A DNA stretch of 64,000 bases from an uncultured Phycisphaerales bacterium (GCA_963785635.1 CAWAWB010000025.1:4729-68728), one strand, 5' to 3'; positions 3,558-64,000 are shown, counted from the stretch's first letter. Notes: generated from the letters alone by a model not told the origin. Numbers and translations are program-made.

Positions 3558-3562
3558 CGAAC

Positions 3563-3640: not shown

Positions 3641-3679
3641 TACGATTAACCTTAGGCGGTGTGTGACAAGTCGCTTTTT

Positions 3680-3709
3680 CTGTACCCTGTGCCCTGTAAC
3701 CTGTACCCT
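3680..3709. repeat. Extra direct copy of the CTGTACCCTG-type arm, 7 nt upstream of the folP start
   Basis: 'ctgtaccctgtgccctgtaacctgtaccct'. It has the same orientation and word as the right arms at 3614-3633 and 18681-18711. Confidence 0.7.
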
Positions 3710-3715
3710 TATCTC

Positions 3716-7125: not shown

Positions 7126-7133
7126 GGGTTCTC

Positions 7134-8240: not shown

Positions 8241-8306
8241 ATAAGAATACCTCTGGGAAGCTATTACATAAAACAATAGCAGCCGAATGGGACTAGCACA
8301 AGACGA

Positions 8307-8681
8307 TCATAAAAGTCGAATGCGTTTATTCTTTGCACGATACCGTTCGATAACGTCTCGTTTCTCAAGAGCGCCAACAGCGCGTAGCACTCTTTTCTCA
8401 AATTCGATCCGAGGAGCACCTCGTGTTAGGACCCCCACCGCCTTTAGTACCCGGGATGCCAATGAATCCAAGGTGCAGGAACGGTTTGGACAGCGCGACA
8501 GAGCCTGGATAATGGCATCTTGAATTTCAGCAGCAGTGATTTCTTCAGCTCGGAGACCAGAGGAACGAAAACCAACCTCTGGATCATGGAACAAGCCATC
8601 CTCATCATCTCTTTCAATTTCCTCTGTAACATCATCACCTTCATCACAATCCCCCTCCGCGACATTGGTCTTGGATGCCAT
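8307..8681 (-). CDS. 124-aa protein with acidic N-terminus, coupled to the helicase-nuclease gene
   Basis: Its ATG (8679-8681) lies 1 nt after the TGA of the upstream gene (8683-8685). Same low GC as that gene. The N-terminal 40 aa are rich in D/E ('EGDCDEGDDVTEEIERDDEDG'). The C-terminal ~75 aa are basic and helical ('EIQDAIIQALSRCPNRSCTLDSLASRVLKAVGV...'), which is winged-helix-like by pattern only. Confidence 0.6.
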   Translation of the reverse strand: MASKTNVAEGDCDEGDDVTEEIERDDEDGLFHDPEVGFRSSGLRAEEITAAEIQDAIIQALSRCPNRSCTLDSLASRVLKAVGVLTRGAPRIEFEKRVLRAVGALEKRDVIERYRAKNKRIRLL

Positions 8682-8682
8682 A

Positions 8683-11600: not shown

Positions 11601-13176
11601 TTTCCGATTCTCGGATATCGCGAAGCCGGCGGATAAGTTTAGCTTTCTCTTCCCTAAGCGCCCTGAGATGCTCTTCCAGTTCTCTGAGTTGGTATTGAGC
11701 GTCGTCCTCAATCCACTCATCTTTCTGACGAAGAATACCGCCAACGCTAGATTCCAACGACTGCCTTTCGTCAAGACCATGCCCAAGTAAATTGACGCAA
11801 AGAGGGCGCAATTCAGTCGGAACCAGATCTTCAAGAACACGAAGAGCACGCGGCGTTTTAGCCGTTATGAGAGTCCTTTGACCCGTGGCCAGCAGATGAC
11901 AAATCAGGTTCGCGATAGTGTGGGATTTCCCCGTGCCCGGGGGGCCTTGCACCAGTACCCCATTGGCGGTTCTCATCTTTTCAACGATTCTGCGCTGTTC
12001 CTGGTTCCAAGGTTTTGGGAAAAACACCTCGCCATCGTGTTTTGCATCCGTCTCCTCAAAACCATCATCAGCGGGTATGCCACCACCGGTAGGATGTTCA
12101 ATTAAATCGGCAAACTCGCTAGGAATCTCTTGGCTCTCTGTGATCCGGTCCTTTATCCGTTTGAGGACTTCTGTGAGTCCCTTGCTCGAGCGTTTTCTTA
12201 AGATCAGGGCAGGAGCAAACTCAACGATTGGCGCTCTTGACGGGTGAGCCCTTGAATCCAAGTAACTTTCATACAAGCCTGGTGGATTTATTGAATGTAC
12301 GAGAGCCCTAAGAACGTCCTCAATGCAACCCGACTTCCAAGGATCATCTTCGGCGGCCGCAAGTGAAGATTTTGCGGCCTCTTCCGCTCGCGGTGGTTGT
12401 TCCTCAACATCCAACATGTCAAACTCGGGGCGAACTTTAGCCCCGTCTGTATGAGGGCGGACAATAAACTTCCCCAATCTCGCTTCAAACTCCAAGGTTG
12501 CATCGGCCACAACCAGGTGTCGCCGGATACGCTGCCCGCTTGCAGTCTGCCAACTAAGCAGGCCTATGCCAAGAACTAGTTCATATTCTTCCCCTAGCCT
12601 GAGCTGGTCTTGATGTATAGCAAACAGTCCGGAATAAACGTTGTGAACCTTTTCCCACGCGTCATGCGCCTCCGCCCACGGAAGCCATTTGTCTTGCACA
12701 AAACTATCCCAGGCTGTTTGAATTTCGGGGTATTCGTCGAGTCGCTCAATGTGCGCGATGAATTCCGGTTGATCGGATCCCTCTCGCCATGCAGGGTTCT
12801 TGATTTGTCTAGTAATTTCAAGGAGAAGGTTGGGCAAGTCGGTTTTAATACGAAGAGATGACAGATGAACCCAATCTTGGCACCCAGCCGGAATCGCGGG
12901 CAAACTAGGCTCTCGCCGATTTTGAACCTCTAGCCATTCGTCTTGGTCATGTTCTTCATCAGGTCCCCACGCCTGAGTAAAACATGCTGGGTCATGTGGA
13001 ATGTCCGAAAACCAAAGGACTTTTTGATACTCTTCAATAGAACGAATCAGCTTCGAGCGCAGAGATGCCAGCCGCAGGAGATACTCAATCAGCCGAACTG
13101 CTTTGTCCGCCTGCGTAGGATTGCCTTTGCTTTCCATGATCCATGTGCCCTCGCCCACGCCAAAGACTTGTTCCAA
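8683..13176 (-). CDS. Giant fusion of a DUF4011-like N-domain, an Upf1-like SF1 helicase and a C-terminal PD-(D/E)xK (DUF559/Vsr-like) nuclease
   Basis: Helicase motifs: I 'GPPGTGKS', II 'IIVDEASQ', III 'VGDDKQISP', '[16 protein letters not shown]', '[11 protein letters not shown]', VI '[16 protein letters not shown]'. C-terminus '[26 protein letters not shown]...[11 protein letters not shown]'. N-terminal '[32 protein letters not shown]'. An alternative start is the ATG at 13137 (MESKGNP). Confidence 0.85.
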   Translation of the reverse strand: [1497 protein letters not shown]

Positions 13177-13264
13177 TCAACTTTCAGACGGTTCGGGCCT
13201 CAAAAGCAAACCATAGGCCTCATTCGTCAAGGCTCCAATGGTTGTCCCCCGAACGCGAGAATAC

Positions 13265-15650: not shown

Positions 15651-15724
15651 CAACTGAGGAAGTTCCTCAGTTGCCTGTATAAGCGTTACAAACTCCGAAA
15701 CTTTCGGAGTTTGTAACGCTTATA
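15651..15724. terminator. Two consecutive perfect hairpins in the gap between the YbaK-like and glycosyltransferase genes
   Basis: 15651-15673 'caactgagga-agt-tcctcagttg' has a 10-bp stem. 15678-15724 'tataagcgttacaaactccgaaa-c-tttcggagtttgtaacgcttata' has 23-bp perfect arms. No clear T-run follows. Confidence 0.5.
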
Positions 15725-15795
15725 CTTAAATCCTCGCCTCGGTTCCCAATCCCTGCCGATAAATCCGCAGGTCCCTCGTCTTTGCGGAGATACCA

Positions 15796-17711: not shown

Positions 17712-17912
17712 GAAGAGGAACACGAAGGTCACAAAGAACACAAAGGACACAAAGAAAGACAATGCAAGTGATAATGGTCCCGAGAAGAAGAGGCTTCAGT
17801 CTCTCTTGCCCTATGCGATCTCTGTTCTTTGAAGTTAATTTATGTCACTCTTTTGACTCTTAATTCTTTGTGCTCTTTGTGACCTTTGTGGTCTTTGTGT
17901 TGCTCTTCTTCC
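17712..17912. repeat. Inverted pair of the CACAAAG / CTTTGTG quasi-periodic (9-nt unit) repeat
   Basis: Left arm 17712-17757 'gaagaggaacacgaaggtcacaaagaacacaaaggacacaaagaaag'. Right arm 17866-17912 'ctttgtgctctttgtgacctttgtggtctttgtgttgctcttcttcc'. A ~108-nt AT-richer spacer separates them. Confidence 0.85.
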
Positions 17913-18614: not shown

Positions 18615-18628
18615 GTCTTGGCAAGAAA

Positions 18629-18711
18629 GGGTACAGGTTACAGGTTACAGCCTACAGACACAAAAATCTGCACCCCGGGCCTGTACCCTGTACCCTGTAC
18701 CCTGTAACCTG
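18629..18711. repeat. GTACAGG / CCTGTAC quasi-periodic inverted repeat after hpt
   Basis: Left arm 'gggtacaggttacaggttacagcctacag'. Right arm 'ctgtaccctgtaccctgtaccctgtaacctg'. It uses the same word as the ftsH terminator. The right arm ends 9 nt before the next start codon. Confidence 0.8.
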
Positions 18712-18719
18712 AGACTGCT

Positions 18720-19305: not shown

Positions 19306-20964
19306 CTAATCATTAGCATACATGGCCTCGAGGCGCGTGTGCGCCATGGCGAGCCCCGCCGGCAAGTCCATCCTGCCTCCGACGACTTCGATATAGCAGG
19401 CCGATTCGCCCGCGGCGGCCCTGGCCAACGCATCATCAAGCCCCCCGAGCGTCGTGACTTTCGCCGTGAACCAACCGCTACAGCCCAGAGCGGCGGGCAG
19501 GTCGTGATAATTCCAGGGAGCAAGATCGTTATAAACCCAATCCGGATTCTCCTCCAGCGCCCGCTCCACCATGTAGCCCTGGTTGTTGAGAACAAAAATG
19601 ATGGGCCTCAGGCCGTGGCGCCCAATCGTGCCGATGTCGGCGGCAGTCAACTGGTGAGAGCCTTCCCCGGTGAGCAGCACAGTCCGCCGCGATGGGTCGG
19701 CCAACGCAACACCCAGCGTTGCACCAGTGGCCCACCCGATTGACCCCCAGAGGGTCTGGCTGTGCACCTGTGCGCCATCGGGCAGAGGGAGCGGGACGAA
19801 CCCCGAGGTCGTGCTGCCGCTCTCAATGACAATCTGATCCATCGGCCTGAGAAACTCTCGATATCGGGCGTACATCTCAGGCGCGGTAATCGGATCATTT
19901 GGCGAGCCGGCTGGCTGGGACCCAGTCTCCCTGGGCGGCGAGCGGAATCCAAAGTTCTTTCTAACCGACCTGGCCAGCATTTCAAAGACATCGCCCATGC
20001 CAACCGGATTAAAAATCCGGTCTCCCATGCGAACGTAATCGACGTCTATGGTCACGAGCTTCTCGGGCGAAAGCTTCTGTGAGTACGCGGACGTGTTGAT
20101 GTCGTGGAAGCAGACGCCCCCGGCATCAATGACCAGATCCGCGCCCTCGACCGCCTCCAGGACGGCGCGGGACGATGCGGCCCCCGAATACATCCCAACG
20201 AACTGGGGATGAGTCTCGCTCAGCACTCCCTTGTCCATCGCCATCGTGGCGAAGGGGCAGCCCAGCCGCTCGATCAACGCCTGGAGCTTGTCCCGGAGCC
20301 CAAACCGCGTGACCGTGTATGCCGGGAGTACGGCCATCGACCGGGCCGCCTCGATCCGCGCGGCGATTGCCTCCACGGCCTTGGGCAGGTCCGGGCCGCT
20401 GGCGGGCTTTGGGTAGGGGACGGCCTGGCCAGGCGTGATCGGGGTGATGGCGTAATCGGAGGCGACGAGTATATAGGCCGGCTAATTTTGGGCCCGCGCC
20501 GTGCCGATCAGCCGCTCCATTTCGTGGGTGCAGTTGTCGGGAGTGATCACCGCCCAGGCGCACGCCGCCTGTGCGGAGATATTGGCGAAGTTCTGGAACT
20601 CCCCATCGCCGAGCGTGTGGTGGGCCATCTTGTGAACTCGCTGGTGGCGCATCGACGGCATGCCGACGAGGTGAAAGATGCATGACCGTTCGGCCTTGGC
20701 CCCCATCACGCCGTTAAGCGCGGATAGCTCGCCCACGGCATATGTGGTCATCAGCATCGAACAGCCGCGCACGCGGGCGTAGCCATCGGCCGCGTACGCC
20801 GCATCCAGCTCGTTGGAACATCCGATCCAGCGGATCGTTTCGCTGCGCACAATGGCGTCGGAGAGATTGAATGCGTAATCCCCCGGGACGCCGAAGCAGT
20901 CGGTAACTCCCTCGCGAGCAAGACGTTGCACGATGTAATCCGCGACAGTGGTTTGCTCAGCCAT
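19306..20964 (-). CDS. Thiamine-diphosphate-dependent alpha-keto-acid decarboxylase (indolepyruvate/phenylpyruvate decarboxylase family), apparent frameshift ~20440-20485
   Basis: N-terminal piece 'VADYIVQRLAREGVTDCFGVPGDYAFNL...CSNELDAAYAADGYAR'. C-terminal piece contains the TPP motif 'LTGEGSHQLTAADIGTIGRHGLRPIIFVLNNQGY'. The two ORFs are contiguous in different frames. Confidence 0.8.
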
Positions 20965-22875: not shown

Positions 22876-23032
22876 GGTGCCACGGGTGCGTTGTGTGCAG
22901 CCGTGCGCAAGACCACCATGAAAACCAAAAGGTCGAAAGGGAGCAGATGAAGCTTTCCTCTGCTTGCCTTTCGAGCCATTGGGCCAATTGATGATTCTGG
23001 CGCACGGCTGCACACAACGCAGCCGTGGCACC
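22876..23032. repeat. 33-bp inverted repeats (32/33 match) around a 91-nt spacer; MITE-like or long stem-loop
   Basis: 22876-22908 'ggtgccacgggtgcgttgtgtgcagccgtgcgc' against 23000-23032 'gcgcacggctgcacacaacgcagccgtggcacc'. Confidence 0.75.
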
Positions 23033-24550: not shown

Positions 24551-24558
24551 AAAAAGAT

Positions 24559-24698
24559 AACCACAAAGACCACAAAGATCACAGAGGGCACAAAGAAAAG
24601 AGAGGCCAAAAGCGTGGAATCAGCGTTCATGAGTCTTGACGTTAGCCCTGAGTGTCTTCTTTGTGTTCTTCGTGGTCTTTGTGATCTTTGTGGTTTGC
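24559..24698. repeat. Inverted pair of the CACAAAG / CTTTGTG repeat, upstream of pncB
   Basis: Left arm 'aaccacaaagaccacaaagatcacagagggcacaaagaaaagagagg'. Right arm 'gtcttctttgtgttcttcgtggtctttgtgatctttgtggtttgc'. The right arm ends 41 nt before the pncB ATG. Confidence 0.85.
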
Positions 24699-24738
24699 TT
24701 TTCTTGTCTTAAGTCTTTCGGCGTGCAAGGATAAACTG

Positions 24739-26206
24739 ATGGGCGCAGAAGACAAAAACCGTTGCCCGCCGGCGCTGTTGACGGACCTGTACCAGTTCAC
24801 CATGGCCTACGGCTATTGGAAGGCGGGCCTGGCGGACAGGCAGGCGGCCTTTCACATCTTCTTTCGCCGCCATCCCTTTGGCGGCGGGTATACGCTGGCC
24901 TGCGGCCTGGAAGGGGCAATCAAATTCGTCGAACATTTTGGCTTCAGCGCGGATGACCTGTCCTATCTGGGCGAGCAAAAGGGTGTAACGGGCCGGCCGC
25001 TTTTTGAGCGAGCGTTCCTGGACTATCTCGGGGCCCTCAAGCTGGAAGTGGAGATGGACGCTGTGCCCGAAGGCACTGTGGTCTTTCCTCACGAGCCTTT
25101 AGTCCGCGTGGTGGGCAAGGTGCTGCAATGCCAGTTGCTCGAAACGGCTCTTTTGAATCAGATCAATTTTCCCACACTCATCGCCACCAAGGCCGCGCGA
25201 GTTTGCCTGGCGGCGCAGGGGCAGGGCGTGGTGGAATTCGGCATGCGGCGAGCGCCCAACGTGGATGGATGTCTGGCCGCCAGCCGCGCGGCGTATATCG
25301 GCGGCTGCATCGGCACATCCAACACGCTGGCGGGCAAGCTGTACGGAATTCCCATCTCGGGTACGCTGGCGCATAGCTGGGTAATGATCTTTGAGGATGA
25401 GCTTAAAGCCTTCGAGGCTTACGCCGCGGCCATGCCGGATAATTGCCTGCTCCTGGTGGATACATACAACAGCTTGGCTGGAGTGGCCAATGCGGTCAAA
25501 GCAGGCAAAAAACTCCAGCAGCAGGGCCACAGGTTCATCGGCATTCGGTTGGATAGCGGGGACCTGGCGTACCTCTCCATCCAAGCGCGACACAATGCTT
25601 GATGAAGCCGGTTTGATGGAGGCAAAAATCTTCGCCAGCGGCGATCTGGATGAGTACATCATCGAAAGCCTGCGCGGCCAGGGCGCCCGCATCGATATGT
25701 GGGGCGTGGGCACGCGCCTGTCCACCGGCCAGGATGGATCGCTCAATGGCGTGTATAAGCTCTCGGCCGTGCGCGATGGGGAAGGCCAATGGCAGTACAA
25801 GCTGAAGCTCTCCGAGCAGGTGGACAAGATAACCTCGCCGGGCATCCTCCAGGTCCGCCGTTTCCGTGGCGATCATGAATTTATGGCGGACATGATCTAC
25901 GATGAGCTTTTGGGCGTGCCATCGGAACGGGTCGTGGTCGATCCGGCGGACCCGACGCGGCGCAAGGTGATTGGGACGGAGGTGGCCCACGAGGACCTGT
26001 TGGTAAAAATCTTCCACCAGGGCCGCCGCGTGTACGATCCGCCGCCCCTGGCCGACACGCGAAAACGCGCGGCCGCGCAACTAGAGTCCCTGCACCCGGC
26101 CATACGGCGCCTGGTCAATCCGCACGAGTACCCGGCCGGCCTGGAAAAGAATCTGCACGAGCTGAAGACCAGGCTCATCCTGAAGATGAGGGGGCTGGAG
26201 AAATGA
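24739..26206 (+). CDS. pncB: Nicotinate phosphoribosyltransferase, apparent 1-nt insertion ~25590
   Basis: '[18 protein letters not shown]...[12 protein letters not shown]' continues after a frame switch as '[13 protein letters not shown]...[11 protein letters not shown]'. The junction 'tccatccaagcgc' contains an extra c. Confidence 0.85.
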
Positions 26207-32828: not shown

Positions 32829-33160
32829 CGCGCACAAAATGGCGCACACTTTTTAGTCGCATCCTACTTCGCTCCCCGCTCCGCTAAAGCTACGCAGGGT
32901 CCAAAGCTACGTAGGACTTTGTCCTACTTCGCTCCCCGCTCCGCTAAAGCTACGCAGGGTCCAAAGCTACGTAGGACTTTGTCCCGCTTCGCTCCCCGCT
33001 CCGCTAAAGCTACGCAGGGTCCAAAGCTACGCAGGACAGGCTTTGACGCTTCTTGATGATTCATGAGTTGTCTTGATGTAGAAGGGGCGGGATTGAACGG
33101 GATTCGGCCGGGACCGCCAAGGCGGGCAAATTCTTCAAAACTGGGCCAACGTGTCGCGTC
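32829..33160. repeat. Copy A of a ~215-bp dispersed element (with an internal 3x60-bp expansion)
   Basis: Collinear with 35494-35708: 'gcgc-cacaaaatggcgca-actttttagtcgcatcctacttcgctccccgctccgctaaagctacgcagggtccaaagct-cgcaggacaggctttgacgcttcttgatgattc-tga...gaaggggcggga-tgaacgggattcggccgggacc...cttcaaaactgggccaacg-gtcgcgt'. A partial third copy lies at ~31425-31480. Confidence 0.85.
32863..33042. repeat. Tandem repeat, 3 units of exactly 60 bp
   Basis: The printed lines beginning at 32861, 32921 and 32981 are nearly identical column by column. The unit is present once in copy B. Confidence 0.9.
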
Positions 33161-35955: not shown

Positions 35956-36076
35956 GGGTTCCCTCCTGATAGGATCATCCCGCCATATCGGCCCTACTTC
36001 GCTCGAGGAAAAAACGCTCGAGCTGACGAAGGGTGGCATCCCGCTTCGCTCAAGCCTTGGCTTGAGCGAAGCGGGA

Positions 36077-36161
36077 TGCCGGGGGTGGGAGTCGAACCCA
36101 CACGACCTTTTGGGTCACGGGATTTTGAATCCCGCGCGTCTGCCAATTCCGCCACTCCGGC
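36077..36161 (-). tRNA. tRNA-Leu (anticodon CAA)
   Basis: Hand-folded 85-nt class II tRNA: 'GCCGGAG..GCG-GAATTGGCAGA-CGC-G-CGGGA-TTCAAAA-TCCCG', a long variable arm (GACC/GGTC), then 'GTGGG-TTCGACT-CCCAC-CCCCGGC-A'. One A-C mismatch in the acceptor stem. Followed on its strand by a perfect 20-bp hairpin (36035-36080). Confidence 0.85.
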
Positions 36162-51181: not shown

Positions 51182-51232
51182 CTTTCTTTGTGTCCTTTGT
51201 GAACTTCGTGAACTTTGTGTTGCTCTTTGTTC
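51182..51232. repeat. CTTTGTG-family repeat copy
   Basis: 'ctttctttgtgtcctttgtgaacttcgtgaactttgtgttgctctttgttc'. A weak inverted partner 'aagagccacacaaagaccctc' lies at 51146-51166. Confidence 0.8.
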
Positions 51233-52839: not shown

Positions 52840-53000
52840 GGGTGATCTCTCTTGTGGCTAATTAGTCTTAGATTCTACTTTTTGGCGAGTCCCATACCAA
52901 TAGAAAGGTCAGAAAGGTCGTTCTTGCAGGCTTTTGTCTTCTCCGCGTCTTCTGCGTCCTCTGCGGTTTATTCCCTCCCGCCTTTACTACGTCTTTTTTC

Positions 53001-53051
53001 CCTTTGTGCCCTTTGTGACCTTTGTGGTCTTTGTGTTGCTCTTGTTCTTGC
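53001..53051. repeat. CTTTGTG-family repeat copy
   Basis: 'cctttgtgccctttgtgacctttgtggtctttgtgttgctcttgttcttgc'. The core is nearly identical to 17875-17905. It is preceded by another quasi-periodic run 'cgtcttctgcgtcctctgcgg'. Confidence 0.85.
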
Positions 53052-54816: not shown

Positions 54817-55722
54817 TTACCCACATTTTTCTTTGTTGGCCATGTCATAACCATGGGCGGTCCAGATCAGTTTGCGTAAACCACGCCAGATGGTCTGCCA
54901 GCCCGGATTGCCATCGCCTTTGCGGCCCGGGAATCCGCCAAAGCGGGCCACGGCGATCAGCGCCGTAGCGTTCGTCCAGCCCCCGGCGGGCCGGCCGTAC
55001 TCGGCCTCCAGGATCGCCAACGCCTCTGGGCCGATCGCCTCTGCGCTCACCGGCTCAGCCGCGCAGGTCCCGGCCAGCAGTTTCATATTCAGCAGCCGCA
55101 CCGCCACCACCGCCAGAATGCCCAGCAGGGAGGTGATCCGCTGCGCCGTGGTCAGTTGACTGTGTTCAATACCCGTGCCGGTCTTGAGCGCCTTGTGATA
55201 CTCTTCGATCAGCCAGCGCCGCGTGTACGCCTTGATCACGCGCATGGCCTGCTCGAAAGTCTCGACCGGCCAATCCGTCAGCAGCACCCAGTGAATCGGC
55301 TGCAGTCCCTCCGGCGGGTTTATTTCGCACGCCTCCACCACGTTGACAGTGCGCGGCGGCCGCCAGCCGCCGGGGCGATACGGGCCACGCAAGCTGATCG
55401 CGCAGGCGCGCACGGACAGCTGCGCCCGCCGCGCCGCCTGCCCTGGCCGGGCGCGTAAATCTATGAAAAACCTGCCCAATTCCGCACTTTCGGCCACGGC
55501 CGTGAATACCGAGCCGGCCTCATCGGCCAGGGCCCGCGCCTGGTTCGCGCGCAGGATAAAGTGCCAGTGATTATCCTGGCAGCGCTCGAATGTCTCATAA
55601 ATGTCGGATTCGCGGTCGGCCACAAAGGTCCAGCGCACCTCCGGCGGCGGAGCGTCCACTTGTTCCACCACCGCCGCCTCCATCCTGGCCGCGCTGGAAT
55701 TCTGCTTCGAGCCGGGCCCCAT
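54817..55722 (-). mobile_element. IS4-family (IS50/Tn5-like) DDE transposase, C-terminal ~2/3 only
   Basis: 'FVADRESDIY' (second D region) and the 'YTRRWLIEEYHKALKTGTGIE' YREK signature. The N-terminal DNA-binding and first-D region are absent. No terminal inverted repeats were identified. Confidence 0.8.
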
Positions 55723-56957
55723 TCACGGCCGCGTGCTTTCCGGCTCCGAAGACCAGGCCCGCACCCTGTACGAGTATTGGTCGCAGTGGTGCTGGCGGCT
55801 CCTGAACGATCGGCTCCTGGACAACCCCGGCCGCCTGGTCACGCGCCTCAACAACGGCGACTTTGAAATCCTGGCCGCCTCGGCCAAGAAAGTGCGCGGC
55901 CCGGGCGTGCAGCGCCTGTACTGGGATGAGTTCGACGAAATCGCCCCCGACATTTTTGGCGCATCCGTAGGCACGCTCAATAGCCTCCCCGGCGTCCCCG
56001 CTCGCACCGTCACCACCTCCACCTGGCATCATCCGCACGGGCCCATGGGCCGGCTCGTGGCTGGCGCCAAAGAACGCGGGCATCACCCTTCACAGGTGGA
56101 ACATCTGGGACATCATCCAGAAGTGCCCGCCCGATCGCCACGTCTTCGGCCGCGGGTGCAGGGATTGCCCGCTCTCGGAGGCCTGCCTCACCAAGGCCAT
56201 GCAGACCTTTCCCGGCGCCAACGTGGGCATCGCCGCGGGCAAAACCCACGGCCTCTTTTCCATCGACGACGCAATCCGCCAGTACCGCAACTGGTCTAAA
56301 GAGCAGTGGGAGACCGAGGCCGAGTGCCGCCGCCCCGTCTTAAAAGGCATGGTCTACCAGTCCTTCAACCAGGACCTCCACGTCGTAAACGATCTGGATT
56401 TCGACGACAACCTCCCCACGTACCGCGCCATCGACTGGGGCCTCAACAATTTCGTGTGCCTGTGGATCCAGCTCACCAAATACGACCAGGTCCGCGTGAT
56501 CGATGAATACTGGACCCAACAGGCCACCGTTCGCCAGGCCGCCCGGGACATCCTCGCGCACGATGGCCACCGCTGGGTCCTGGCTAATTACTGCGACCCC
56601 GCCGGCGCCAGCCGTAGCGACCAGACCGGCCTCAGCGACAAGCAAGTCTTCAGACAGGAAGGCATTCCCTGTACCAGCCGGCGCGGCAAAAAGGTTCAGG
56701 ACCTCAACTACGGCATCAATATCATCCGCGCATACCTGAATCCCAATTACGGCTCGCCGCGCTTGAAGATCGCCGGCCGCTGCACCGGCCTCATCCGCGC
56801 CTTCGAGAGCTACCGCCTGCGCGAAGTCAACGGCCAGCCCATAGATGAACCCATCAAGCCCCAGCCCTGCGACCACCCCATGGACGCCCTCCGCTACTTC
56901 TTCGTTAACCGCCTTCCGGTCAAGGATGAAGTGAAGCACATGGGATACTCGGGTTGA
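55694..56957 (+). pseudogene. Phage terminase large subunit, 5'-truncated at the IS junction, plus a frameshift ~56085
   Basis: Walker-B-like 'RLYWDEFDE' follows 'LEFCFEPGPIHGRVLSGSEDQARTLYEYW'; no Walker A is present. The nuclease half 'YRAIDWGLNNFVCLWIQ...VIDEY...NYCDPAG...DHPMDALRYF' is in the frame of ORF 56199..56957. Confidence 0.75.
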
Positions 56958-56966
56958 TTGCCCTAG

Positions 56967-57245
56967 GAATTGCGGATTGCGGATTTCGGATTGCGGATTG
57001 ACTCTGATTAACTGGAGATTAGTCTGCAGTATTGAATTGGGAATAAAACATGATGCATCTGATTAATTTAGCGGCTCAAGTTGCAATTTCATGTCTGTTA
57101 TTATGCGACCTGTTCCGCTGATCGTTGCTCTCACTCTTCAATCCGCAATCCGAAATCCGCATCCGCAATCAGTGAGCTCACGCGATTTCGGCTGGACGTA
57201 GTTTTTGCTTCTCAATCCGCAATCCGAAATCCGCAATCCGCAATC
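56967..57245. repeat. GATTGCG-word quasi-periodic inverted repeat (one left arm, two right arms)
   Basis: Left arm 56967-57000 'gaattgcggattgcggatttcggattgcggattg'. Right arms 57139-57170 and 57213-57245 'caatccgcaatccgaaatccgcaatccgcaatc'; the latter is an exact complement over 31 of 33 nt. An AT-rich spacer separates the arms. Confidence 0.9.
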
Positions 57246-57264
57246 ATATTAACTGGAAAGATCT

Positions 57265-58715
57265 ATGCCCGATACCTTCGATCCTTATCAAACAAACGCC
57301 CTCTTCGATCGTCACCGCGCCCGCTGGCAGCTCGGAGCTGGATGTCAGCGAGTTCACCCTCGATGTGGTGCGCTCGGGCGCCTATCTCGACCGCTTTTCC
57401 GAAAGCGAGCACGGAGCAGGACTATGCCTATCGCCTCTCCATGTCCTGCCCGCTGGATATGTGCCGCGACGGCGTCCGCATCCGCGTCGATAATCTCTGG
57501 CGCACCGCCCCGCAGCGGATCATTCGCGACGGCCGCTATGCCGGTCTGCTCCGCTTCCTGGTCGCCGACGCCGATGGCGAAGGCGCCAGTCTCGATGAAT
57601 TCATGCGCCAGGCCTGCTGGGATATGTACGTCACCGGCTGCGACATCGTCACCCAGGAAACCGCCGCCGATTCCTCCCGCATCTTCACCCGCGCCGATCA
57701 GCGCACGGCGGGCGTTCGCCCCTATTTCCTCCGCTTCAATCCTCTCCAGCGCCCCGACTGGGCGGTGACGGGTTCCGGGCATTTCGCCTGGGCCCGTTAC
57801 TGCCTGGGCGCCAAACCCGCCGCGGATGAGCGCGACGATGCTGCCGCCGCCGAGGTCCGCTTCCTCACCATCGCTGGCGATCGCTGGCGATTATGGTCCG
57901 CCAAAACCGCCTCGGCCGGCGTGCGCACCGTGCAATTAATCGCCCAGGGCGCTAATCCCCTCGGCCGACCGCCGATCACCAAGCTGTATTTCTCCGAAAG
58001 CCGCAAGGCGGGGCAGGGCGGCGTGCCGCTCTCGCTTTTGACGCGACCGGCACTCGTTGCCCGCGCGGCCCTCAATCTAAAAAGTCAGGCCGATGCCGAC
58101 CTCCTCGCCGCCGTGACGCGCTGGACGATCTCCGGCGCAGAAGGCGACGAGCTGCCCGATTGCTACGGCCCCGGCGTGGTCTGGAAGCTCTCTAATCCCG
58201 ATGCCCGCCTCCAGATCGCCCAGGGCGATGTGGCCCACATCGCCGAAAAACGCCAGTGGCTCGTGCTGTACCTGGCCGAGATCCTTCGCCTCCTCAAATT
58301 CCGCGGCGGCATGGCCGACATCGATGCCTCCGCCGGCTCCGGCCTGCGCCTCGCCCTGGAGCGCACCGATCTGGATAACGAACTGCGGGCCACCGCCGCG
58401 CAGCTTGAAGCCGCCGAACTGGAGATGATGCGCCAGGCCGTCAGCCTCTCCACCGGCCGCGTCATTCCCCCCGAGCGCGCCGCCGAGGAACTGGGCTATC
58501 AGGTCAATTACAACCGCGATTACGTCCTGGCCCCCGTCGCCGAAATGCTCGACAACATGGGCCGTTGGCTGCAAAACTGCTCCGCCATCGCCGGCGATGT
58601 GAAGGAAATCTCCCGCGAAATGGCCCGCCAACTCACCAACCTCCTCATGCGCGACGGCAGCGACGCCTATCGCATCGCCATGGACCAGATCGATGAAGCG
58701 CCGCTGGATCAGTGA
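57265..58715 (+). CDS. Phage portal protein (DUF4055-like), at least 2 apparent frameshifts (~57325, ~57405)
   Basis: 'MPDTFDPYQTNALFDRHRARWQL', 'ELDVSEFTLDVVRSGAYLDRF' and 'TEQDYAYRLSMSCPLDMCRDGVRIRVDNLWRTAPQRII...' lie in three frames. About 480 aa. Positioned between terminase and scaffold. Confidence 0.65.
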
Positions 58716-58802
58716 ATTACAAATTACAAAGTACAAGTGACAAATTAGAGAAGAGTCTCGAATAGGCCGTAATTTGTAACTTGTAATTTGTACTTTGTAA
58801 TT
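58716..58802. repeat. TTACAAA-word quasi-periodic inverted repeat
   Basis: 'aattacaaattacaaagtacaagtgacaaatta' ... 'taatttgtaacttgtaatttgtactttgtaatt'. Confidence 0.85.
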
Positions 58803-58817
58803 CCATGGAGTTATTTC

Positions 58818-59648
58818 ATGCCCAATGAAGATGTAAATACTAATTCCCCGGCCGGACGGTCAGATTTAGATTCAACCATAGATGCTGCCCCGGCCGCCGC
58901 GCCGGTTCAGCCCCCCGCACAAACGGATAGCCCGGACGGGCAATCAACCGCTTCGCGCGAGCTGGTCTCCCGCGAAGAATTGGACAAGGCCATCAAGGAA
59001 CGCCAGGCCGCCAAGCTCCGCGCACGCAATGCGGAGGCCAAACTGGCCCAGCTTCAAGAACAACTGAAACATGCCGCAGACCCTCAGCCCGTGGAATCTG
59101 AAGCCGCCGAATCAAGTGATTCTGTAACTGAAGCAGCAGCCGCCGCCGAATCGGATGACTCGGCTCAGCAGCAGTTGCAGCAAAAACTCTCTGCTACCCA
59201 GGAGCAACTGGCTCACCTGCTGCGTGACCGGGAACTACACGCCGCGGCGGTAGCCGCTGGCGCAATAAATCCCGAGCAAATAGTGGCCCTCCTGGCTCAC
59301 CGCGTGCGCATGGTCGAGCAGGAAGATGGGCAATTCTCGCCCCAATTCCTGGATGACCGCGGCCGCGCCGCCGTCGATGGGGCCGGAAAGCCCATCGACG
59401 CCGAAACCTTCGTACGTTCCTATTTGTCGCAGCCGCAAAATGCCAACCTTGTCCGCGCCACATCGGCCGGCGGGTCGGGCGCCCGCCTGGCAGGACTTCC
59501 CGGCCAGGTCTCAGGCCTTCCCCAGACCCTGGCCGATTTCAACTCCCTGCCGCCCTCCGAGCGCCGCCAGGCAGCCCTGCGCCTCTCACGCGCAGAGCGA
59601 CAGGCGCTCCTGGGCCTGCCTGGCGCCGACCGAGTAGGCTATCTGTAA
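58818..59648 (+). CDS. Phage scaffolding-type protein (coiled coil, acidic)
   Basis: Located between portal and capsid. Long helical charged segments ('ELDKAIKERQAAKLRARNAEAKLAQLQEQLK'). The call rests on position and composition. Confidence 0.5.
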   Translation: MPNEDVNTNSPAGRSDLDSTIDAAPAAAPVQPPAQTDSPDGQSTASRELVSREELDKAIKERQAAKLRARNAEAKLAQLQEQLKHAADPQPVESEAAESSDSVTEAAAAAESDDSAQQQLQQKLSATQEQLAHLLRDRELHAAAVAAGAINPEQIVALLAHRVRMVEQEDGQFSPQFLDDRGRAAVDGAGKPIDAETFVRSYLSQPQNANLVRATSAGGSGARLAGLPGQVSGLPQTLADFNSLPPSERRQAALRLSRAERQALLGLPGADRVGYL

Positions 59649-59651
59649 CTA

Positions 59652-59846
59652 GGCTGGAGGCCGGAGGCCGGAGACTGGAGCAGAGGCAACAATCCTTTCG
59701 GCGCCAGCGACACCGCTTCGGCTTAAAGCCGCATCTTACTTTCATTTTGAGGCCCAGAGGCAAAGATCGGGCGGTGAAACACCGGCAAATTCCCTCGTAA
59801 GTATTCGGGCTGTTTCTCCAGCCTCCGGTCTCCAGCCTCCAGCCTC
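59652..59846. repeat. CTGGAGG/CCGGAGG-word quasi-periodic inverted repeat
   Basis: Left arm 'ggctggaggccggaggccggagactggagcagagg'. Right arm 'tctccagcctccggtctccagcctccagcctc'. The right arm ends ~20 nt before the capsid ATG. Confidence 0.85.
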
Positions 59847-59867
59847 TTTCAAAGGAGTTTTCTTCAT

Positions 59868-60725
59868 ATGTCCCAAACCAACACCACCACTCTTCAATAC
59901 TCTCTTCCCACCGAGCACATCGTCGCCGCGGTCGTGCAGGAGGCGCGCCCCTACAACGTGTGCGCGCCCCTGGTGCTCAATGACATCCTGCCGCGCGGCG
60001 GCGGCAAGACCTGGCAGAAGGTGATCCTGCCCACCACCACCGCCGCGGCCGTGGGTGAAACGGCCGATATTTCCGCCGGCGCCCGCACCGTCACCCGCGC
60101 TTATACGGAAATCGGCGAAGTCGGCCTGTCCACCGAGCTGACCCGCCTGGCCGAGGAAACCAGCCAGCTCGCCAACCAGGTGCTCCTGTGGGCCGAGAGC
60201 CAGGGCCGCGCCATCGCCCAGAAGGTGACCGCGGACCTCTGCGCCCTCTTCCCCGATCTGGGCTCCGGCGCCATCGGCACCTCCGGCCAGAACATCACCG
60301 TCAATGATTTCGTCGAGGCCATGTACACGCTGGATAACGCCAATGCCCCGGGGCAGAAGCGCTGCGTCCTGCACCCGCGCCAGGTGGCCGATCTGTTCTC
60401 CGCCCTCTCCGGCGTCTACCAGAGCCTGCCTGAGCTCATTCGCTCGGGCATCCTGCCCGAGGGCCAGCCCGCGGCCGGCTTTGTGGGCCAGCTCTTCGGC
60501 GTCCCCATTTACCAGACCACCGAGGTGGACCTGGTCAATACCAACGCCGACCGCTGCGGCTGCATGTTCGTGCCCGAGGCCCTGGCCTTCATCCAGCTTC
60601 GGCCCATCACCGTCGAGTACGACTACGACGCCTCCAAGCGCGCCCGCGAGATCGTCGTCACCGCCGCCTACGGCGTGGCCGAGGTCGTCGGCTCCTACGG
60701 CGTGCCCATCGCCACGGACGCGTAG
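59868..60725 (+). CDS. Phage major capsid protein (HK97-fold type, family not resolved)
   Basis: 285 aa, immediately after the scaffold. Strong 'aaaggag' RBS. Composition and length are typical of small major capsid proteins. No cleavage or protease gene was seen. Confidence 0.7.
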   Translation: MSQTNTTTLQYSLPTEHIVAAVVQEARPYNVCAPLVLNDILPRGGGKTWQKVILPTTTAAAVGETADISAGARTVTRAYTEIGEVGLSTELTRLAEETSQLANQVLLWAESQGRAIAQKVTADLCALFPDLGSGAIGTSGQNITVNDFVEAMYTLDNANAPGQKRCVLHPRQVADLFSALSGVYQSLPELIRSGILPEGQPAAGFVGQLFGVPIYQTTEVDLVNTNADRCGCMFVPEALAFIQLRPITVEYDYDASKRAREIVVTAAYGVAEVVGSYGVPIATDA

Positions 60726-60794
60726 TTGTAAAACCTCTCCGCAGGCGGCGCCCGCGCTAGGGATTGCTATATGCGTCCCGGCGCGGGGCCGCCC

Positions 60795-60877
60795 AAATTT
60801 ACAATTTACAATTGACAATTTACAAATTGGGAGCGACGTCCTTCCTCTAATTGTCAATTGTAAATTGTAAATCAATT
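60795..60877. repeat. AATTTACA-word quasi-periodic inverted repeat
   Basis: 'aaatttacaatttacaattgacaatttacaaatt' ... 'taattgtcaattgtaaattgtaaatcaatt'. The central 24 nt are exactly complementary. Confidence 0.9.
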
Positions 60878-60906
60878 GATGTGGATACACCTCTATTGGA
60901 GTAATC

Positions 60907-61524
60907 ATGCCTGATAAACAGTATGAACTTATGCCGGCTGAGACTCAGCAGGTCGAGGAATTGAAATCCCGCATCGCCCGCCACGGCGGCCTGTTCGCCT
61001 GCGATGAGGCGGGGGAGCTGCTGCTGGATGTGGCCGGCCGGCCCTCGCCCCTGGAATACTTCATCCTGCGCACGCGGCGATTCCTCATCGACCACGCCGG
61101 CCAACTCTGGCGCCTCTTCGGCGAGGGCTCGCGCAAAAACCCCAGCGCCCCCGATGGCGGCGGGGCCCCCTGGCGCAACAATCGCATCGAAATGTGGAAC
61201 GGCCGCTGGCGAAAGGTGAAGGATCCGAACGGCCAGGTGAAATATGAAAAGGCCCTCACCAGCCGGCCCATCGATAAGCGGATCAACGGCCAGCCGGGCA
61301 TCTCCCAGATCGATTTCTACCGCAGCCGCGGCTATCGCCATCCCTTCGATGAGCCGCACCAGCCTTCGCCCCAGGAAGTCGCTGCCCTGAACGCGCCCAA
61401 ACAGCGGGGGGATTTCTCTTCGCCGCCGCAGCACCTCGCCGCCGAGTCGTTGCCATTGCAGCCGGCAAAAGCAAACAGTGGAAGCGCTCCCTCCAACGGG
61501 ACTAAACACACGCCCAAAGACTGA
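60907..61524 (+). CDS. Hypothetical phage protein
   Basis: 205-aa ORF after the capsid gene. 'ggag' lies upstream of the ATG. No motif recognised. Confidence 0.5.
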   Translation: MPDKQYELMPAETQQVEELKSRIARHGGLFACDEAGELLLDVAGRPSPLEYFILRTRRFLIDHAGQLWRLFGEGSRKNPSAPDGGGAPWRNNRIEMWNGRWRKVKDPNGQVKYEKALTSRPIDKRINGQPGISQIDFYRSRGYRHPFDEPHQPSPQEVAALNAPKQRGDFSSPPQHLAAESLPLQPAKANSGSAPSNGTKHTPKD

Positions 61525-61621
61525 TCAGCCGCATAGCGGCGAAAGATTCCAGGCCGGGGCGGCAGCCCCGGCAATCCATCGCATAAGATTTGGAGCCCCG
61601 GAGGGGCGGCACAACATTTCT

Positions 61622-61780
61622 ATGTCCCTTGATCGAAAAACAGTGGAGCGCACTGCCGGCCTGCACATCCGCCAGTTGCAACAGTTTCGCTCAGTCAGTG
61701 AAAAAGAGAAAACCGACATCCGCCGTGTGCACGAACGCGCGGCCATGAAGGTCCAACGCAAGGCCGAGAATCATGAATAG
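61622..61780 (+). CDS. Small hypothetical protein (52 aa)
   Basis: ATG at 61622 is preceded by 'ggagg'. Basic, helical sequence. Weak support. Confidence 0.3.
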   Translation: MSLDRKTVERTAGLHIRQLQQFRSVSEKEKTDIRRVHERAAMKVQRKAENHE

Positions 61781-61818
61781 AGAATTCCCATTGGCGCCGT
61801 ATCTGCGGCTCTTGTCTT

Positions 61819-61866
61819 CAGGTCCCGTAGGGACCGTAAAAATGTAGCCCAGCACTTCAGTGCTGG
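61819..61866. repeat. ~48-nt double-hairpin element (copy 2)
   Basis: 'caggtcccgtagggaccgtaaaaatgtagcccagcacttcagtgctgg'. About 44/48 identical to 54765-54813, in the same orientation. Confidence 0.8.
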
Positions 61867-61939
61867 ATAACATGTCCCCCGTATAATAGAGTGCCGTAGG
61901 CACGGCACAAAACGTGGGATTAACAAGACCTGAACTGTA

Positions 61940-61988
61940 TTTCTTTGTGACCTTCGTGCCTTTGTGGCCTTTGTGTTGCTCTTTCTCC
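61940..61988. repeat. CTTTGTG-family repeat copy inside the phage module
   Basis: 'tttctttgtgaccttcgtgcctttgtggcctttgtgttgctctttctcc'. It ends 28 nt before the ATG at 62016. Confidence 0.85.
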
Positions 61989-62015
61989 ACAGCAAAAAAA
62001 CCAACCGGAGTCCCC

Positions 62016-62312
62016 ATGATAGACACAGGAATTGACAACCCCGCCTGCGGCCGCGTGGCCATCACCACCAGCTCGCAAACCATCGACCTGGGCGCTCATC
62101 GCCGACAGGTCCGCGTCTGGCTCGATAAAGGCGCCGCCGATGTGTACATCTCGCTGGATCCTTCCAGCCCCTTTACGGTCGCCGCCTCGGACAGTTTTCC
62201 CAAAATCGACGATTCCGTGGCTTACGCGCGGGCCGTGGCATTCCCCGGCACGCACTACATCCACTTCATCGGCGTCGCCGCCACCGGCAAACTGAACTAC
62301 GAAGCCTGGTGA
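62016..62312 (+). CDS. Hypothetical phage protein (98 aa)
   Basis: ATG at 62016 (MIDTGIDNP...). Beta-rich composition. The upstream part of ORF 61914 lies in the repeat. Confidence 0.5.
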   Translation: MIDTGIDNPACGRVAITTSSQTIDLGAHRRQVRVWLDKGAADVYISLDPSSPFTVAASDSFPKIDDSVAYARAVAFPGTHYIHFIGVAATGKLNYEAW

Positions 62313-62393
62313 AGCCACATTTGTCTACCTCCCATTTCCGATTGATGTTTGGAATGCGGTTTGGATTTGGGTTCGCAATTTGGGATTTAAATT

Positions 62394-63632
62394 ATGCAAC
62401 GAGAATTCGAAACTTTAGCGCCCCTGTCGCCTCTGTCCGTCGCCTCCGCCGCGCGCTTGTCCGGCGGGCCTTTCAGCTTCGCCGATGCGGATCACACCCA
62501 TAAAACCGGCACGTTCCTCATGGCCGGCTACACCATGGCCACCAACTCCATGAAGGTCTTCCGGTCCTGCGACGGCATCAATTTTGGGTATTATAATTAC
62601 GACTGGTACGGCGCCGGCCCCGGCGAATTGGTGCGCGATCCCGACATCATCAAGCACAATGGCCGCTGGCTGCTCACCTTCACCTCCAATTTGGGCAATT
62701 CCACCAACGATATTCCCATCTTCTGGTCCAAGGATCTGCACGCGTGGACCCTGCTCACGCGCATTGCCCTGCCCGCCGGCAAGACCCGCTGCTGGGCGCC
62801 GCAGTGGTTCGTCGACAACGACGACTCGGTGCACATCATCGCCACGATGTCCGACGACAGCTTGACCCCGCAGGTCCCGTACGAAACGCACGCCTCGGAC
62901 ATGCGCCTTCTGGCCTGGTCCACCCCCGCGGCGATCACCGGCACGGGTTTTCCCACGCGCATGTATGATCCCTTCATCATCCGCTACGCAAACACCCATT
63001 ACATGTTTTACGTGCACTACAATGTGCCTGGCGATCCCCTGTACGGCACGTTGGAATATCAGGTGGAGCGGGCCACATCCCTGTCGCTCACTGGCGGCTA
63101 CACGGTAACCCACACCGGCGATTTTGCCGGCTGGGGCAAGGCCGAAGGCCCGTGCATCGTGCCCTACGATTTCGCGCACCCCACGTACTGGCGCGCCTAT
63201 TTCGATAAAACCTCCGACGGCGACACCCACTACAGTGAATCTACTGATTACGGCATCACCTGGACGCCACCCGTGCAGGTCAGCAGGCCTTCTCCCATGA
63301 ATCATGTCACGGTGCGAAACCTCCTGGCGCCTGACCATAATCTGGCGCTCGATGGCCAGGATGTGAACGCCGCGCCCACAGTCATCAACGGCAGCACCTC
63401 CGGCGCCATGACCTGCTCCATGCCCATTCAGGGGTCCGCCTTGAAGCGCGTAATGATTCGCCTGGCCGGTTTTCAAAGTACCGCCAAAACCTGGGTCTTT
63501 CCCACGCCGTTCTGCGCACCGCCCGTCGCCAGTTTTGGCGGCAATGAAAACGTAGCGGTCACACCCACCCAAGTCACCGTTACCTCCAGCGCCGCGCCCA
63601 CGGATGATTTCATCTGTCTGGACGGATTCTAA
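62394..63632 (+). CDS. Five-bladed beta-propeller glycoside hydrolase-like protein (GH43-like); putative tail/depolymerase
   Basis: Blade motifs 'VRDPDIIKHNGRWLLTF', 'CWAPQWFVDNDDSVHII', 'MYDPFIIRYANTHYMFYV' and 'AEGPCIV' give the D / D / E pattern of GH43-type propellers. A ~110-aa C-terminal extension follows. Confidence 0.55.
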   Translation: MQREFETLAPLSPLSVASAARLSGGPFSFADADHTHKTGTFLMAGYTMATNSMKVFRSCDGINFGYYNYDWYGAGPGELVRDPDIIKHNGRWLLTFTSNLGNSTNDIPIFWSKDLHAWTLLTRIALPAGKTRCWAPQWFVDNDDSVHIIATMSDDSLTPQVPYETHASDMRLLAWSTPAAITGTGFPTRMYDPFIIRYANTHYMFYVHYNVPGDPLYGTLEYQVERATSLSLTGGYTVTHTGDFAGWGKAEGPCIVPYDFAHPTYWRAYFDKTSDGDTHYSESTDYGITWTPPVQVSRPSPMNHVTVRNLLAPDHNLALDGQDVNAAPTVINGSTSGAMTCSMPIQGSALKRVMIRLAGFQSTAKTWVFPTPFCAPPVASFGGNENVAVTPTQVTVTSSAAPTDDFICLDGF

Positions 63633-63655
63633 GCCGGCCGGGAGGCCGGCGAAAT

Positions 63656-63753
63656 GGCTATTTGGTGTTTTGACTTTTTGCCTGTTTGGAAAAGAAGCTG
63701 GAGGATCTGCCTCCAAACACCAAATAGTCAAATAGCCAAAACACCAAACAGCC
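63656..63753. repeat. TTTGGTG-word quasi-periodic inverted repeat
   Basis: 'ggctatttggtgttttgactttttgcctgtttgg' ... 'ccaaacaccaaatagtcaaatagccaaaacaccaaacagcc'. It is preceded by the small hairpin 'gccggccgggaggccggc'. Confidence 0.85.
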
Positions 63754-63778
63754 AAAAGCGAGCGAAGCGAGCTATCTA

Positions 63779-64000
63779 ATGAGATTATCCCAAACCTCCA
63801 CAACCTGCTGCCTCATCCTCCGCGAGCCGGCCGCGCTTGCCCCCGTAACCGGCCTGGCCAGCGCCGACGCCTCCATCGGATACGTCCGCCCAGGCGCCGC
63901 GGCCGCCTGGAATAACGCCGCCGCGCTCGCCTCGCCCACCGATGCGTTTACCGCCAATGGTTTTATCGAAGTGGATGCGGCCAATCTCCCCGGTGTGTAT
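63779..64000 (+). CDS. Hypothetical phage protein, 3' end outside window
   Basis: ATG at 63779. The frame stays open to the window end (MRLSQTSTTCCLILREPAALAPVTGLASADASIGYVRPGAAAAWNNAAA...). It is not in the ORF track because no stop lies within the window. Confidence 0.4.
   Translation, partial: MRLSQTSTTCCLILREPAALAPVTGLASADASIGYVRPGAAAAWNNAAALASPTDAFTANGFIEVDAANLPGVY

Follow-up and report, generated by a model that had tools for sequence, protein, structure and literature searches.

The window analysed here is a stretch of 64,000 nucleotides (nt) of DNA from a Phycisphaerales bacterium, and the subject of this report is a set of long hairpins, built of short tandem words, that lie between the genes of a prophage-like element within it. 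The head and tail gene module of this element occupies positions 56960-63760 on the + strand. Gene assignments, which rest on homology to related contigs as well as on scans against PHROG and Pfam, gave a large terminase gene, terL (55664-56957, +), which contains one frameshift and lacks ~58 N-terminal residues beside a transposase fragment; a portal gene (57265-58715, +) with two apparent frameshifts near its 5′ end; a probable scaffold gene (58818-59648, +); a major capsid gene of the N4-gp56-like family (59868-60725, +); and a gene for a tail protein that weakly resembles glycoside hydrolase family 43 (62394-63632, +). Several small genes lie between the last two. The probable scaffold gene is a homologue of the gene in the equivalent position of L001, and its more distant counterpart in L210 showed a faint match to the Pfam family Phage_scaffold (L-numbers denote related loci or contigs that were compared with the window). 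By capsid, the nearest cultured phages are Pelagibacter podophages (~34% capsid identity), and an exact-sequence look-up of the major capsid protein found no record. The remainder of the window is host chromosome carrying ftsH, folP, a DisA-type cyclase gene, hpt, pncB and three tRNA calls; the best genome match was a Phycisphaerales metagenome-assembled genome (MAG; 74% HPRT identity), and the remaining good matches were all from Phycisphaerae.

Five gaps of the module contain inverted repeats, at 56965-57247, 58712-58805, 59649-59847, 60794-60874 and 63655-63757 (hairpins 1 to 5). Their arms are composed of about four to five tandem units of a 7- or 8-nt word, and the word varies from gap to gap. 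Hairpin 1, in the terL/portal gap, has one left arm and two right arms. The left arm (56965-57001) contains about five GATTGCG units, of which the third is GATTTCG; the outer right arm (57212-57247) is complementary to it at 33 of 33 positions, variant unit included; and the inner right arm (57138-57172), made of CAATCCG units with a one-base deletion in one of them, is a near-copy of the outer. This agrees with the first-pass annotation of the window, which had described a GATTGCG hairpin with arms of ~33 bp, one left and two right. Hairpin 2, in the portal/scaffold gap, consists of AATTACA units in the left arm (58712-58747), which overlaps the portal stop codon, and TGTAATT units in the right arm (58770-58805). 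In the scaffold/major capsid gap, the CTGGAGG/CCGGAGG units of the left arm of hairpin 3 (59649-59682) face the CCTCCAG units of its right arm (59814-59847). Hairpin 4, located 3′ of the major capsid gene, has a left arm of AATTTAC units (60794-60825) and a right arm (60847-60874) whose core is complementary at 24 of 24 positions. The two arms of hairpin 5, located 3′ of the tail gene, both have period 8 (63655-63689, with the word YTNTTTGR, and 63720-63757). The arms had been said to be built of words of 7-9 nt; their tandem nature was verified, with the correction that the fourth word is 7 nt long (AATTTAC) and the fifth has period 8. Hairpins 2 and 4 have a common word and different loops. 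The spacer of hairpin 1 also contains, at 57050-57121 (+), a 23-codon open reading frame (ORF) for a hydrophobic peptide (MMHLINLAAQVAISCLLLCDLFR), which was spotted by eye and may be due to chance.

The best ungapped arms were 56969-57001/57212-57244 for hairpin 1 (33 nt, 100% complementary), 58714-58747/58770-58803 for hairpin 2 (34 nt, 3 mismatches), 59651-59680/59816-59845 for hairpin 3 (30 nt, 3 mismatches), 60797-60820/60849-60872 for hairpin 4 (24 nt, 100% complementary) and 63655-63689/63720-63754 for hairpin 5 (35 nt, 5 mismatches). In hairpins 1 (33/33) and 4 (24/24), imperfect units are mirrored exactly in the opposite arm. No stem of such quality appeared in 100 dinucleotide-preserving shuffles of 56900-64000, and the RNAfold z-scores of hairpins 1 to 5 were -8.6, -6.6, -5.3, -8.9 and -5.7; all five inverted repeats of the first-pass annotation are present and lie far beyond chance. 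Tandem Repeats Finder (TRF) reported period 7 for the arms of hairpins 1-4 and period 8 for 63720-63756 in hairpin 5, the arrays having periods of 7-9 and 3.3-4.9 copies. Across the window there were 13 period-7 runs, compared to 0.4 in shuffles.

Each stem (24-35 bp) is placed between one gene's stop codon and the ribosome-binding site of the following gene, and leaves the latter unpaired. The right arm, expected from the first-pass annotation to end usually 15-30 nt before a start codon, was found 17 nt from the portal ATG at 57265 (hairpin 1), 14 nt from the ATG at 58818 (hairpin 2), 21 nt from the capsid ATG at 59868 (hairpin 3), 34 nt from the ATG at 60907 (hairpin 4) and 22 nt from the ATG at 63779 (hairpin 5). 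The spacers measure 21-210 nt. With a GC content of 0.44-0.57, they are richer in AT than the genome (~0.60), as had been proposed, but not richer than their own arms in three of the five hairpins.

The claim that every major gap of the module carries a hairpin is overstated: of its eight gaps that reach 60 nt or more, five do. The other three contain other repeats or a weak run: gaps 61525-61622 and 61781-62015 hold Acido-Lenti-1-like hairpins and an array of 9-nt units, and gap 62313-62393 holds a TTTGGRA run (62330-62392, +). This run had been reported as a single arm at 62330-62390; it is indeed present and has no inverted partner, but it is weak and irregular, falls under the TRF threshold and does not fold (RNAfold z = 0.2). 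The near-matches to Acido-Lenti-1 (RF01687), both located in gaps without heptamer hairpins, are at 61527-61572 (-; 35.9 bits) and 61821-61867 (-; 32.2 bits), the gathering score being 37. The second contains the GTCCCGTAGGGAC palindrome, which also fills gaps in L001 and L207.

The minimum free energies of the heptamer hairpins were alike on the sense and antisense strands. A mild antisense folding preference among 13 phage hairpins was dropped as compositional, because composition-preserving shuffles gave an equal effect. Mismatches between arms in hairpins of known orientation showed no G·U excess on the sense strand (8 G·U-type against 12 A·C-type, a small sample). The lack of strand bias in either folding or mismatches implies that the hairpins are symmetric Watson-Crick palindromes, which is in keeping with their being generated or corrected as DNA, or having arisen very recently, and says nothing for or against a role in RNA. 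A role as ordinary intrinsic (Rho-independent) terminators, a function considered in the first-pass annotation, is not supported, as none of the five phage-module hairpins has a T-run 3′ of its right arm and their loops are 21-210 nt long; the sole case with such a run (TTTTTT) is the inner hairpin of one host locus (3575-3645). No terminator-like site coincided with the long arms, and promoter-like sites occurred at chance level only. A search of Rfam 15 gave no family match for the hairpins, the only hits to them being weak ones to generic microRNA-precursor hairpins, far under threshold.

Distribution in the window and in related genomes

Hairpins of this kind are likewise present in the host part of the window. 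The one in the ftsH/folP gap (3563-3710) resembles hairpin 1 in having one left arm (3563-3597, CAGGGTA units) and two right arms (inner, 3617-3636; outer, 3679-3710); its inner right arm is followed by TTTTTT and is terminator-like. The other lies directly 3′ of hpt (18624-18716, AGGTTAC/CCTGTAC units). These two hairpins have a common word and different loops. A single TTTGGRA heptamer array, annotated previously at 7220-7260, is real at 7221-7261 (+); it lies between convergent host genes and has no partner.

Hairpin-per-gap counts and intergenic densities rest on crude gene calls and are approximate. Period-7 arrays occurred in the window at 8.4 per 10 kb of intergenic and 0.4 per 10 kb of coding sequence. 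In 56 other Phycisphaerae hpt neighbourhoods (800 kb) the corresponding values were 2.3 and 0.27, and loci of other phyla gave 0.38 per 10 kb intergenic. An inverted partner within 350 nt was detected for 13 of the 14 window arrays and a direct partner for only 2, while about one third of the arrays in other Phycisphaerae had an inverted partner and direct partners were rare. Each heptamer word occurs once or twice in the window. Together with the host hairpins after ftsH and hpt, these results show that the hairpins are not specific to the phage module, as had first appeared, but are a trait of the Phycisphaerales lineage and some of its phages rather than of one prophage alone. Two further ideas did not hold. 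Over all loci the stems were 20-73 nt long (mostly 23-36 nt), and a constant arm length of ~35 nt regardless of period was therefore dropped; and a long stem stood beside hpt in only 5 of the 56 loci, so a hairpin at a fixed position beside this gene across Phycisphaerae was rejected. In L033, a Phycisphaeraceae MAG, heptamer arrays at 2900-5900, with the words GTCCTGA and GGATTGC (that of hairpin 1), lie inside a 1423-residue ORF, where three heptamer units would encode a 7-residue peptide repeat.

A second type of repeat in the window is conserved in sequence and consists of four 9-nt CTTTGTGNN units followed by TTGCTCTT. Its + strand copies are at 17864-17910, 24653-24700, 51186-51228, 52992-53045 and 61943-61990. 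The first two have inverted partners (17721-17757 and 24557-24600) and form host hairpins upstream of hpt (17712-17908, CACAAAGNN ... CTTTGTGNN) and of pncB (24552-24702); the arrays at 51186, 52992 and 61943 are single, the last, with CTTTGTGNN units and a TTGCTCTT tail, being the one in the phage module. The pattern gave 20 matches in 64 kb compared to 0 expected. Two copies have 26 identical bases in common, and the inverted pairs have unrelated spacers. Both 9-mer hairpins fold better on the + strand, by 6-7 kcal/mol. The family was absent from 86 related loci, and L005, the closest host-side relative, has a gap of 110 nt where the window has one of 380 nt with the 9-mer hairpin upstream of hpt. 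When the family was used as a probe of metagenome contigs, (CTTTGTGNN)3 was found in at least 120 contigs of varied GC, mostly ending in GTTAAA and often as inverted pairs; no synteny with the window was seen among the contigs carrying it. The family behaves like a dispersed element of the repetitive extragenic palindromic (REP) type or like a binding array.

The probed contigs (622 kb) yielded 56 period-7 arrays with 48 distinct words, which indicates that the heptamer hairpins are not copies of a few conserved REP or miniature inverted-repeat transposable element (MITE) families, as far as this can be judged without the whole genome; the 9-mer family would be of that kind. The earlier observation that the architecture recurs while the word differs holds both in the window and across ~2 Mb of related sequence.

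Comparison of orthologous gaps in related phages showed that the words differ there too. The window, L001 and L003 all have a hairpin at the terL/portal junction, with a common core, ATTGC, and with units that read GATTGCG in the window, AATTGCA in L001 and GATTGCC in L003. The difference between GATTGCG and AATTGCA recurs at the same position of nearly every unit in either arm, implying that this hairpin is inherited and that its change was concerted. The remaining gaps of L001 (85% capsid identity) include some with other arrays, and in L003 (78%) the terL/portal hairpin is short and degenerate, starting with GATTGCC. Six relatives of 79-81% capsid identity (L004, L085, L086, L208, L209 and L210) have overlapping or ~25-nt junctions and no hairpins, and L207 (87%) carries REP-like GTCCCGTAGGGAC palindromes in the scaffold/capsid gap instead of a hairpin. 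In the more distant L214, L215, L216 and L219 (55-57% capsid identity), hairpins of 7- or 8-nt words, again other words, occur around portal, scaffold and capsid, and between L215 and L219 one arm of the orthologous hairpins differs by whole units. No hairpins were found in 17 low-GC relatives. The slippage-type generating mechanism that had been offered as an alternative in the first-pass annotation is consistent with the concerted word change at terL/portal and with the whole-unit differences between L215 and L219.

Relation to known intergenic repeats

Heptamer repeats between genes have been on record for decades from a scattering of bacteria, with no consensus on what they do or how they arise. 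According to the summary of Mrazek (2007) given in PMC4679880, heptamers are the commonest unit among the longer simple repeats of bacteria, and slippage has been proposed for them; the long simple-sequence repeats outlined there have units of 5-11 nt and include the short tandemly repeated heptamers of cyanobacteria. Heptamer repeats are reported from cyanobacteria and Beggiatoaceae (PMC4679880). The arrays described here agree with long simple-sequence repeats in that tandem units of 5-11 nt occur beyond chance and that units of a length not divisible by 3 lie mainly outside coding sequence. They are likewise short arrays of 7-nt units, strongly intergenic, patchy among lineages, with several words per genome and no established function. 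They differ in being mostly inverted pairs with 24-35-bp stems and in having only 4-5 units, and Phycisphaerae and their phages are not among the lineages described in the papers found.

In Xanthomonas, GGGAATC repeats form 70-75 convergent array pairs per genome that are able to form stem-loops; whether arrays are single or an inverted pair is for the most part the same from species to species, but their length varies (Rehm et al. 2015, PMC4692102). Convergent pairs are frequent here as well (13 of 14 arrays). Xanthomonas GGGAATC and Nostoc GGGGA(T/C)T are, however, single G-rich words, one per genome, studied as quadruplex formers, whereas here nearly every hairpin has a word of its own and most of the words are unable to form quadruplexes. 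No quadruplex-type word with a G3-4 tract was present among GATTGCG, AATTACA, CTGGAGG, AATTTAC and YTNTTTGR, a G3 tract occurring only in TTTGGGA runs. In reporter assays, the heptamer repeats of Nostoc influence expression through an unknown mechanism (bioRxiv 10.1101/2022.06.06.494920). In Geobacter metallireducens, tandem heptanucleotide elements of four or five units lie at many intergenic sites, and the putative global-regulator sites are reported to be mostly paired (PMC2700814); these are sequence-conserved families (GGACCGG, MTYCTGA) read as regulator sites, unlike the differing words of the present hairpins.

The first-pass annotation recognised no described element class in the hairpins. 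In view of the heptamers described in Xanthomonas (PMC4692102), Geobacter (PMC2700814), and cyanobacteria and Beggiatoaceae (PMC4679880), this was too strong: the hairpins are a lineage-wide form of a known kind of repeat, the intergenic heptamers. A search of the literature found no account of such hairpins from Planctomycetes. New are the lineage itself, the predominance of hairpins and a diversity of nearly one word per site, also within phage gene modules.

REP sequences and REPINs (Bertels and Rainey 2011) also call for comparison, and REP sequences block 3′ exonucleases in Escherichia coli operons. REP/REPIN elements are intergenic singlets or inverted doublets that form hairpins between co-directional genes, with proposed roles in mRNA stability or termination (Di Nocera et al. 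2013, PMC3733652). The present hairpins share this arrangement as intergenic singlets or inverted doublets between co-directional genes. In contrast, REPs are conserved high-copy families with a GTAG or CGTC tag and a tyrosine transposase, and the heptamer hairpins share neither sequence nor tag: no GTAG/CGTC tag was found at a palindrome end in the hairpin arms, and no heptamer word formed a conserved high-copy family in the 64-kb window or, with 48 words in 56 arrays, in the metagenome contigs. Only the 9-nt CTTTGTGNN family resembles REP in behaviour within the window. MITE features were not seen, since the loops of same-word hairpins are unrelated and no flanking duplication is visible.

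Among phages, RNase III sites occur between the genes of T7 as intercistronic stems of about 20 bp or longer just upstream of the next ribosome-binding site; they are conserved, have internal loops and are of proven cleavage. The predicted stems described here (24-35 bp) similarly lie between phage cistrons directly upstream of the next ribosome-binding site, but are missing from close relatives.

Origin and possible role of the hairpins

The explanation that we favour, holding it with about as much doubt as confidence, is that the hairpins are paired long simple-sequence repeats that evolve in place. An element would consist of an array of about 4-5 units (a 7-nt word, sometimes 8 or 9; 24-36 nt in all) and an inverted copy 20-210 nt away. 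Slippage by whole units would add, remove and homogenise units in place, and a stem made of a repeated word would still pair after the gain or loss of a unit and hence tolerate slippage. Complementarity of the arms would be kept either by selection on pairing or by copying from arm to arm through intrastrand template switching at quasi-palindromes, a process known from E. coli; such templated copying would account for the mirrored imperfect units. The constant geometry might be explained because hairpins persist only where they are harmless, from the stop codon to the next ribosome-binding site, purifying selection on both of these setting the placement. A transcribed hairpin would then place a 24-35-bp stem between cistrons, and its likeliest effect would be to punctuate the polycistronic late mRNA, either by stopping 3′ exonucleases or by being cut by a double-strand-specific RNase. 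Evolution in place is supported by the intergenic enrichment, the inverted pairing, the diversity of words, the concerted change at an orthologous junction, the whole-unit differences and the gain and loss between relatives.

Several results weigh against this explanation. Slippage alone does not account for the mirrored arms, and copying between arms is our inference. Hairpins were present in 5 of 8 phage-module gaps and 2 of 38 host gaps (approximate counts; Fisher p ~0.0008), an enrichment of ~10-fold, and they recur around the portal, scaffold and capsid genes of distant viral relatives; this hints at a use in phage expression, for which a purely neutral account makes no provision. Some words recur between genomes (GATTGCG-like, GGGATTT-like and CTGGAGG), so the choice of word may not be free.

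The enrichment and the recurrence around head genes keep alive a less likely, functional account, in which the hairpins would be RNA elements under selection in the late operon. Their stems would be cut by a double-strand-specific RNase or block 3′ exonucleases, and portal, scaffold and capsid would in either case be given different mRNA levels. As nothing but shape would count, the words could drift freely. Selection on RNA fits the position of the stems exactly between stop codon and next ribosome-binding site with that site unpaired, the enrichment in the phage module, the recurrence at portal, scaffold and capsid under other words in viral contigs of 55-57% capsid identity, and the change of word while complementarity holds. 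It is at odds with the finding that neither strand folds better beyond composition, with the missing G·U bias on the sense strand in the small sample of mismatches, and with the relatives of 78-87% capsid identity that lack hairpins or have unrelated REP-like elements in those gaps, which imply that the hairpins are dispensable. The selection for structure suggested in the first-pass annotation is accordingly not borne out by the strand symmetry or by the close relatives. It is rather unlikely that the hairpins represent a sequence-free, shape-selected class of intercistronic hairpins used by Phycisphaerae and their phages. Were this so, a repeated-word stem would survive and regrow after slippage while its sequence turns over quickly, a constant long stem at operon junctions would be a signal for RNase processing or stability, and the clustering at portal, scaffold and capsid would reflect control of head-protein ratios.

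An origin as non-autonomous mobile elements of the REP/REPIN or MITE type, with arms that are transposase recognition sequences of many small word families and insert singly or as inverted pairs, is unlikely. The 9-nt family does act in this manner (single and paired arrays, unrelated spacers, 20 matches per 64 kb, at least 120 contigs), a single left arm is joined by two right arms at two loci, the pairs 58712/60794 and 3563/18624 have a word but not a loop in common, and the presence of hairpins varies between relatives. Against it stand the 48 words in 56 heptamer arrays; the order of variant units, which differs between same-word hairpins and shows that these are not copies of one master sequence; the unconserved spacers and lack of visible target-site duplication; the vertical inheritance of the terL/portal hairpin, which changed in place; and, as a weak test, the absence of a REP-associated tyrosine transposase among the ~28 window proteins scanned. 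A mobile origin suits the 9-mer family better than the heptamer hairpins. Arrays that bind protein on DNA or RNA, as inverted sets of regulator or nucleoid-protein sites, seem quite improbable: the fixed word and unit number of the 9-nt family would suit them, and in Beggiatoaceae and Nostoc a function as regulator sites has been proposed for heptamers close to start codons (PMC4679880; bioRxiv 10.1101/2022.06.06.494920), but the heptamer words differ at nearly every site, which would require a separate binding protein for each, and no candidate protein was identified.

Assembly artefacts of low-complexity sequence can be practically discounted. Apparent frameshifts in folP (3716-4569), a thiamine pyrophosphate-dependent enzyme gene (19306-20964), pncB (24739-26206), terL and portal do suggest an assembly prone to insertion and deletion (indel) errors, the likely cause rather than gene decay because essential host genes are also affected, and exact unit counts may consequently be unreliable, for instance where one base is missing from the inner right arm of hairpin 1. 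However, indel errors cannot make perfect inverted repeats of 33 nt, contig names with k141_ and NODE_ suggest short-read assemblers, and similar hairpins, including the orthologous one at terL/portal, occur in independent assemblies from other samples, which excludes the artefact that the first-pass annotation had named as a possible refutation.

The lineage provides an unusually clean case, as nearly all arrays are paired into hairpins, the words vary from site to site, and one junction can be traced through related phages while its word shifts in both arms. This makes it testable whether such repeats are a by-product of mutation or a structural signal, and how their arms stay complementary. 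For annotation, the hairpins and REP-like elements inflate the intergenic gaps of Phycisphaerae prophages, and there is a risk of their being annotated wrongly as terminators, small RNAs or CRISPR-like repeats.

Other features of the window

A fragment of a Tn5-like DDE transposase (54817-55722, -) adjoins the terminase gene. As the terminase lacks approximately its first 58 residues beside this fragment, the prophage may be defective. On the host side, a low-GC island at 8000-13200 (47-53% compared to ~60%) is probably of foreign origin; its one minus-strand ORF, of 1497 residues, has a GC of only 0.47 at third positions. A repeat of ~65 nt (aacccctccccctcctacgggggaggatggcc...gccaggtgggggttctgttct) is present in two copies, at 7125-7195 and 7665-7735, and a similar element was seen in L001. 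The second copy is overlapped by a 94-nt tRNA-Arg(cct) call of ARAGORN (7648-7741), which is probably false because the Rfam tRNA model misses it. A 60-nt tandem repeat was detected at 32862-33037 (2.9 copies, 97% matches, TRF score 331). Long inverted repeats without periodicity also occur: a perfect 23-bp palindrome with a 3-nt loop at 15677-15725, a pair of 37-nt arms lying 83 nt apart at 22876-23032, and a perfect 21-bp stem beside tRNA-Leu at 36035-36080.

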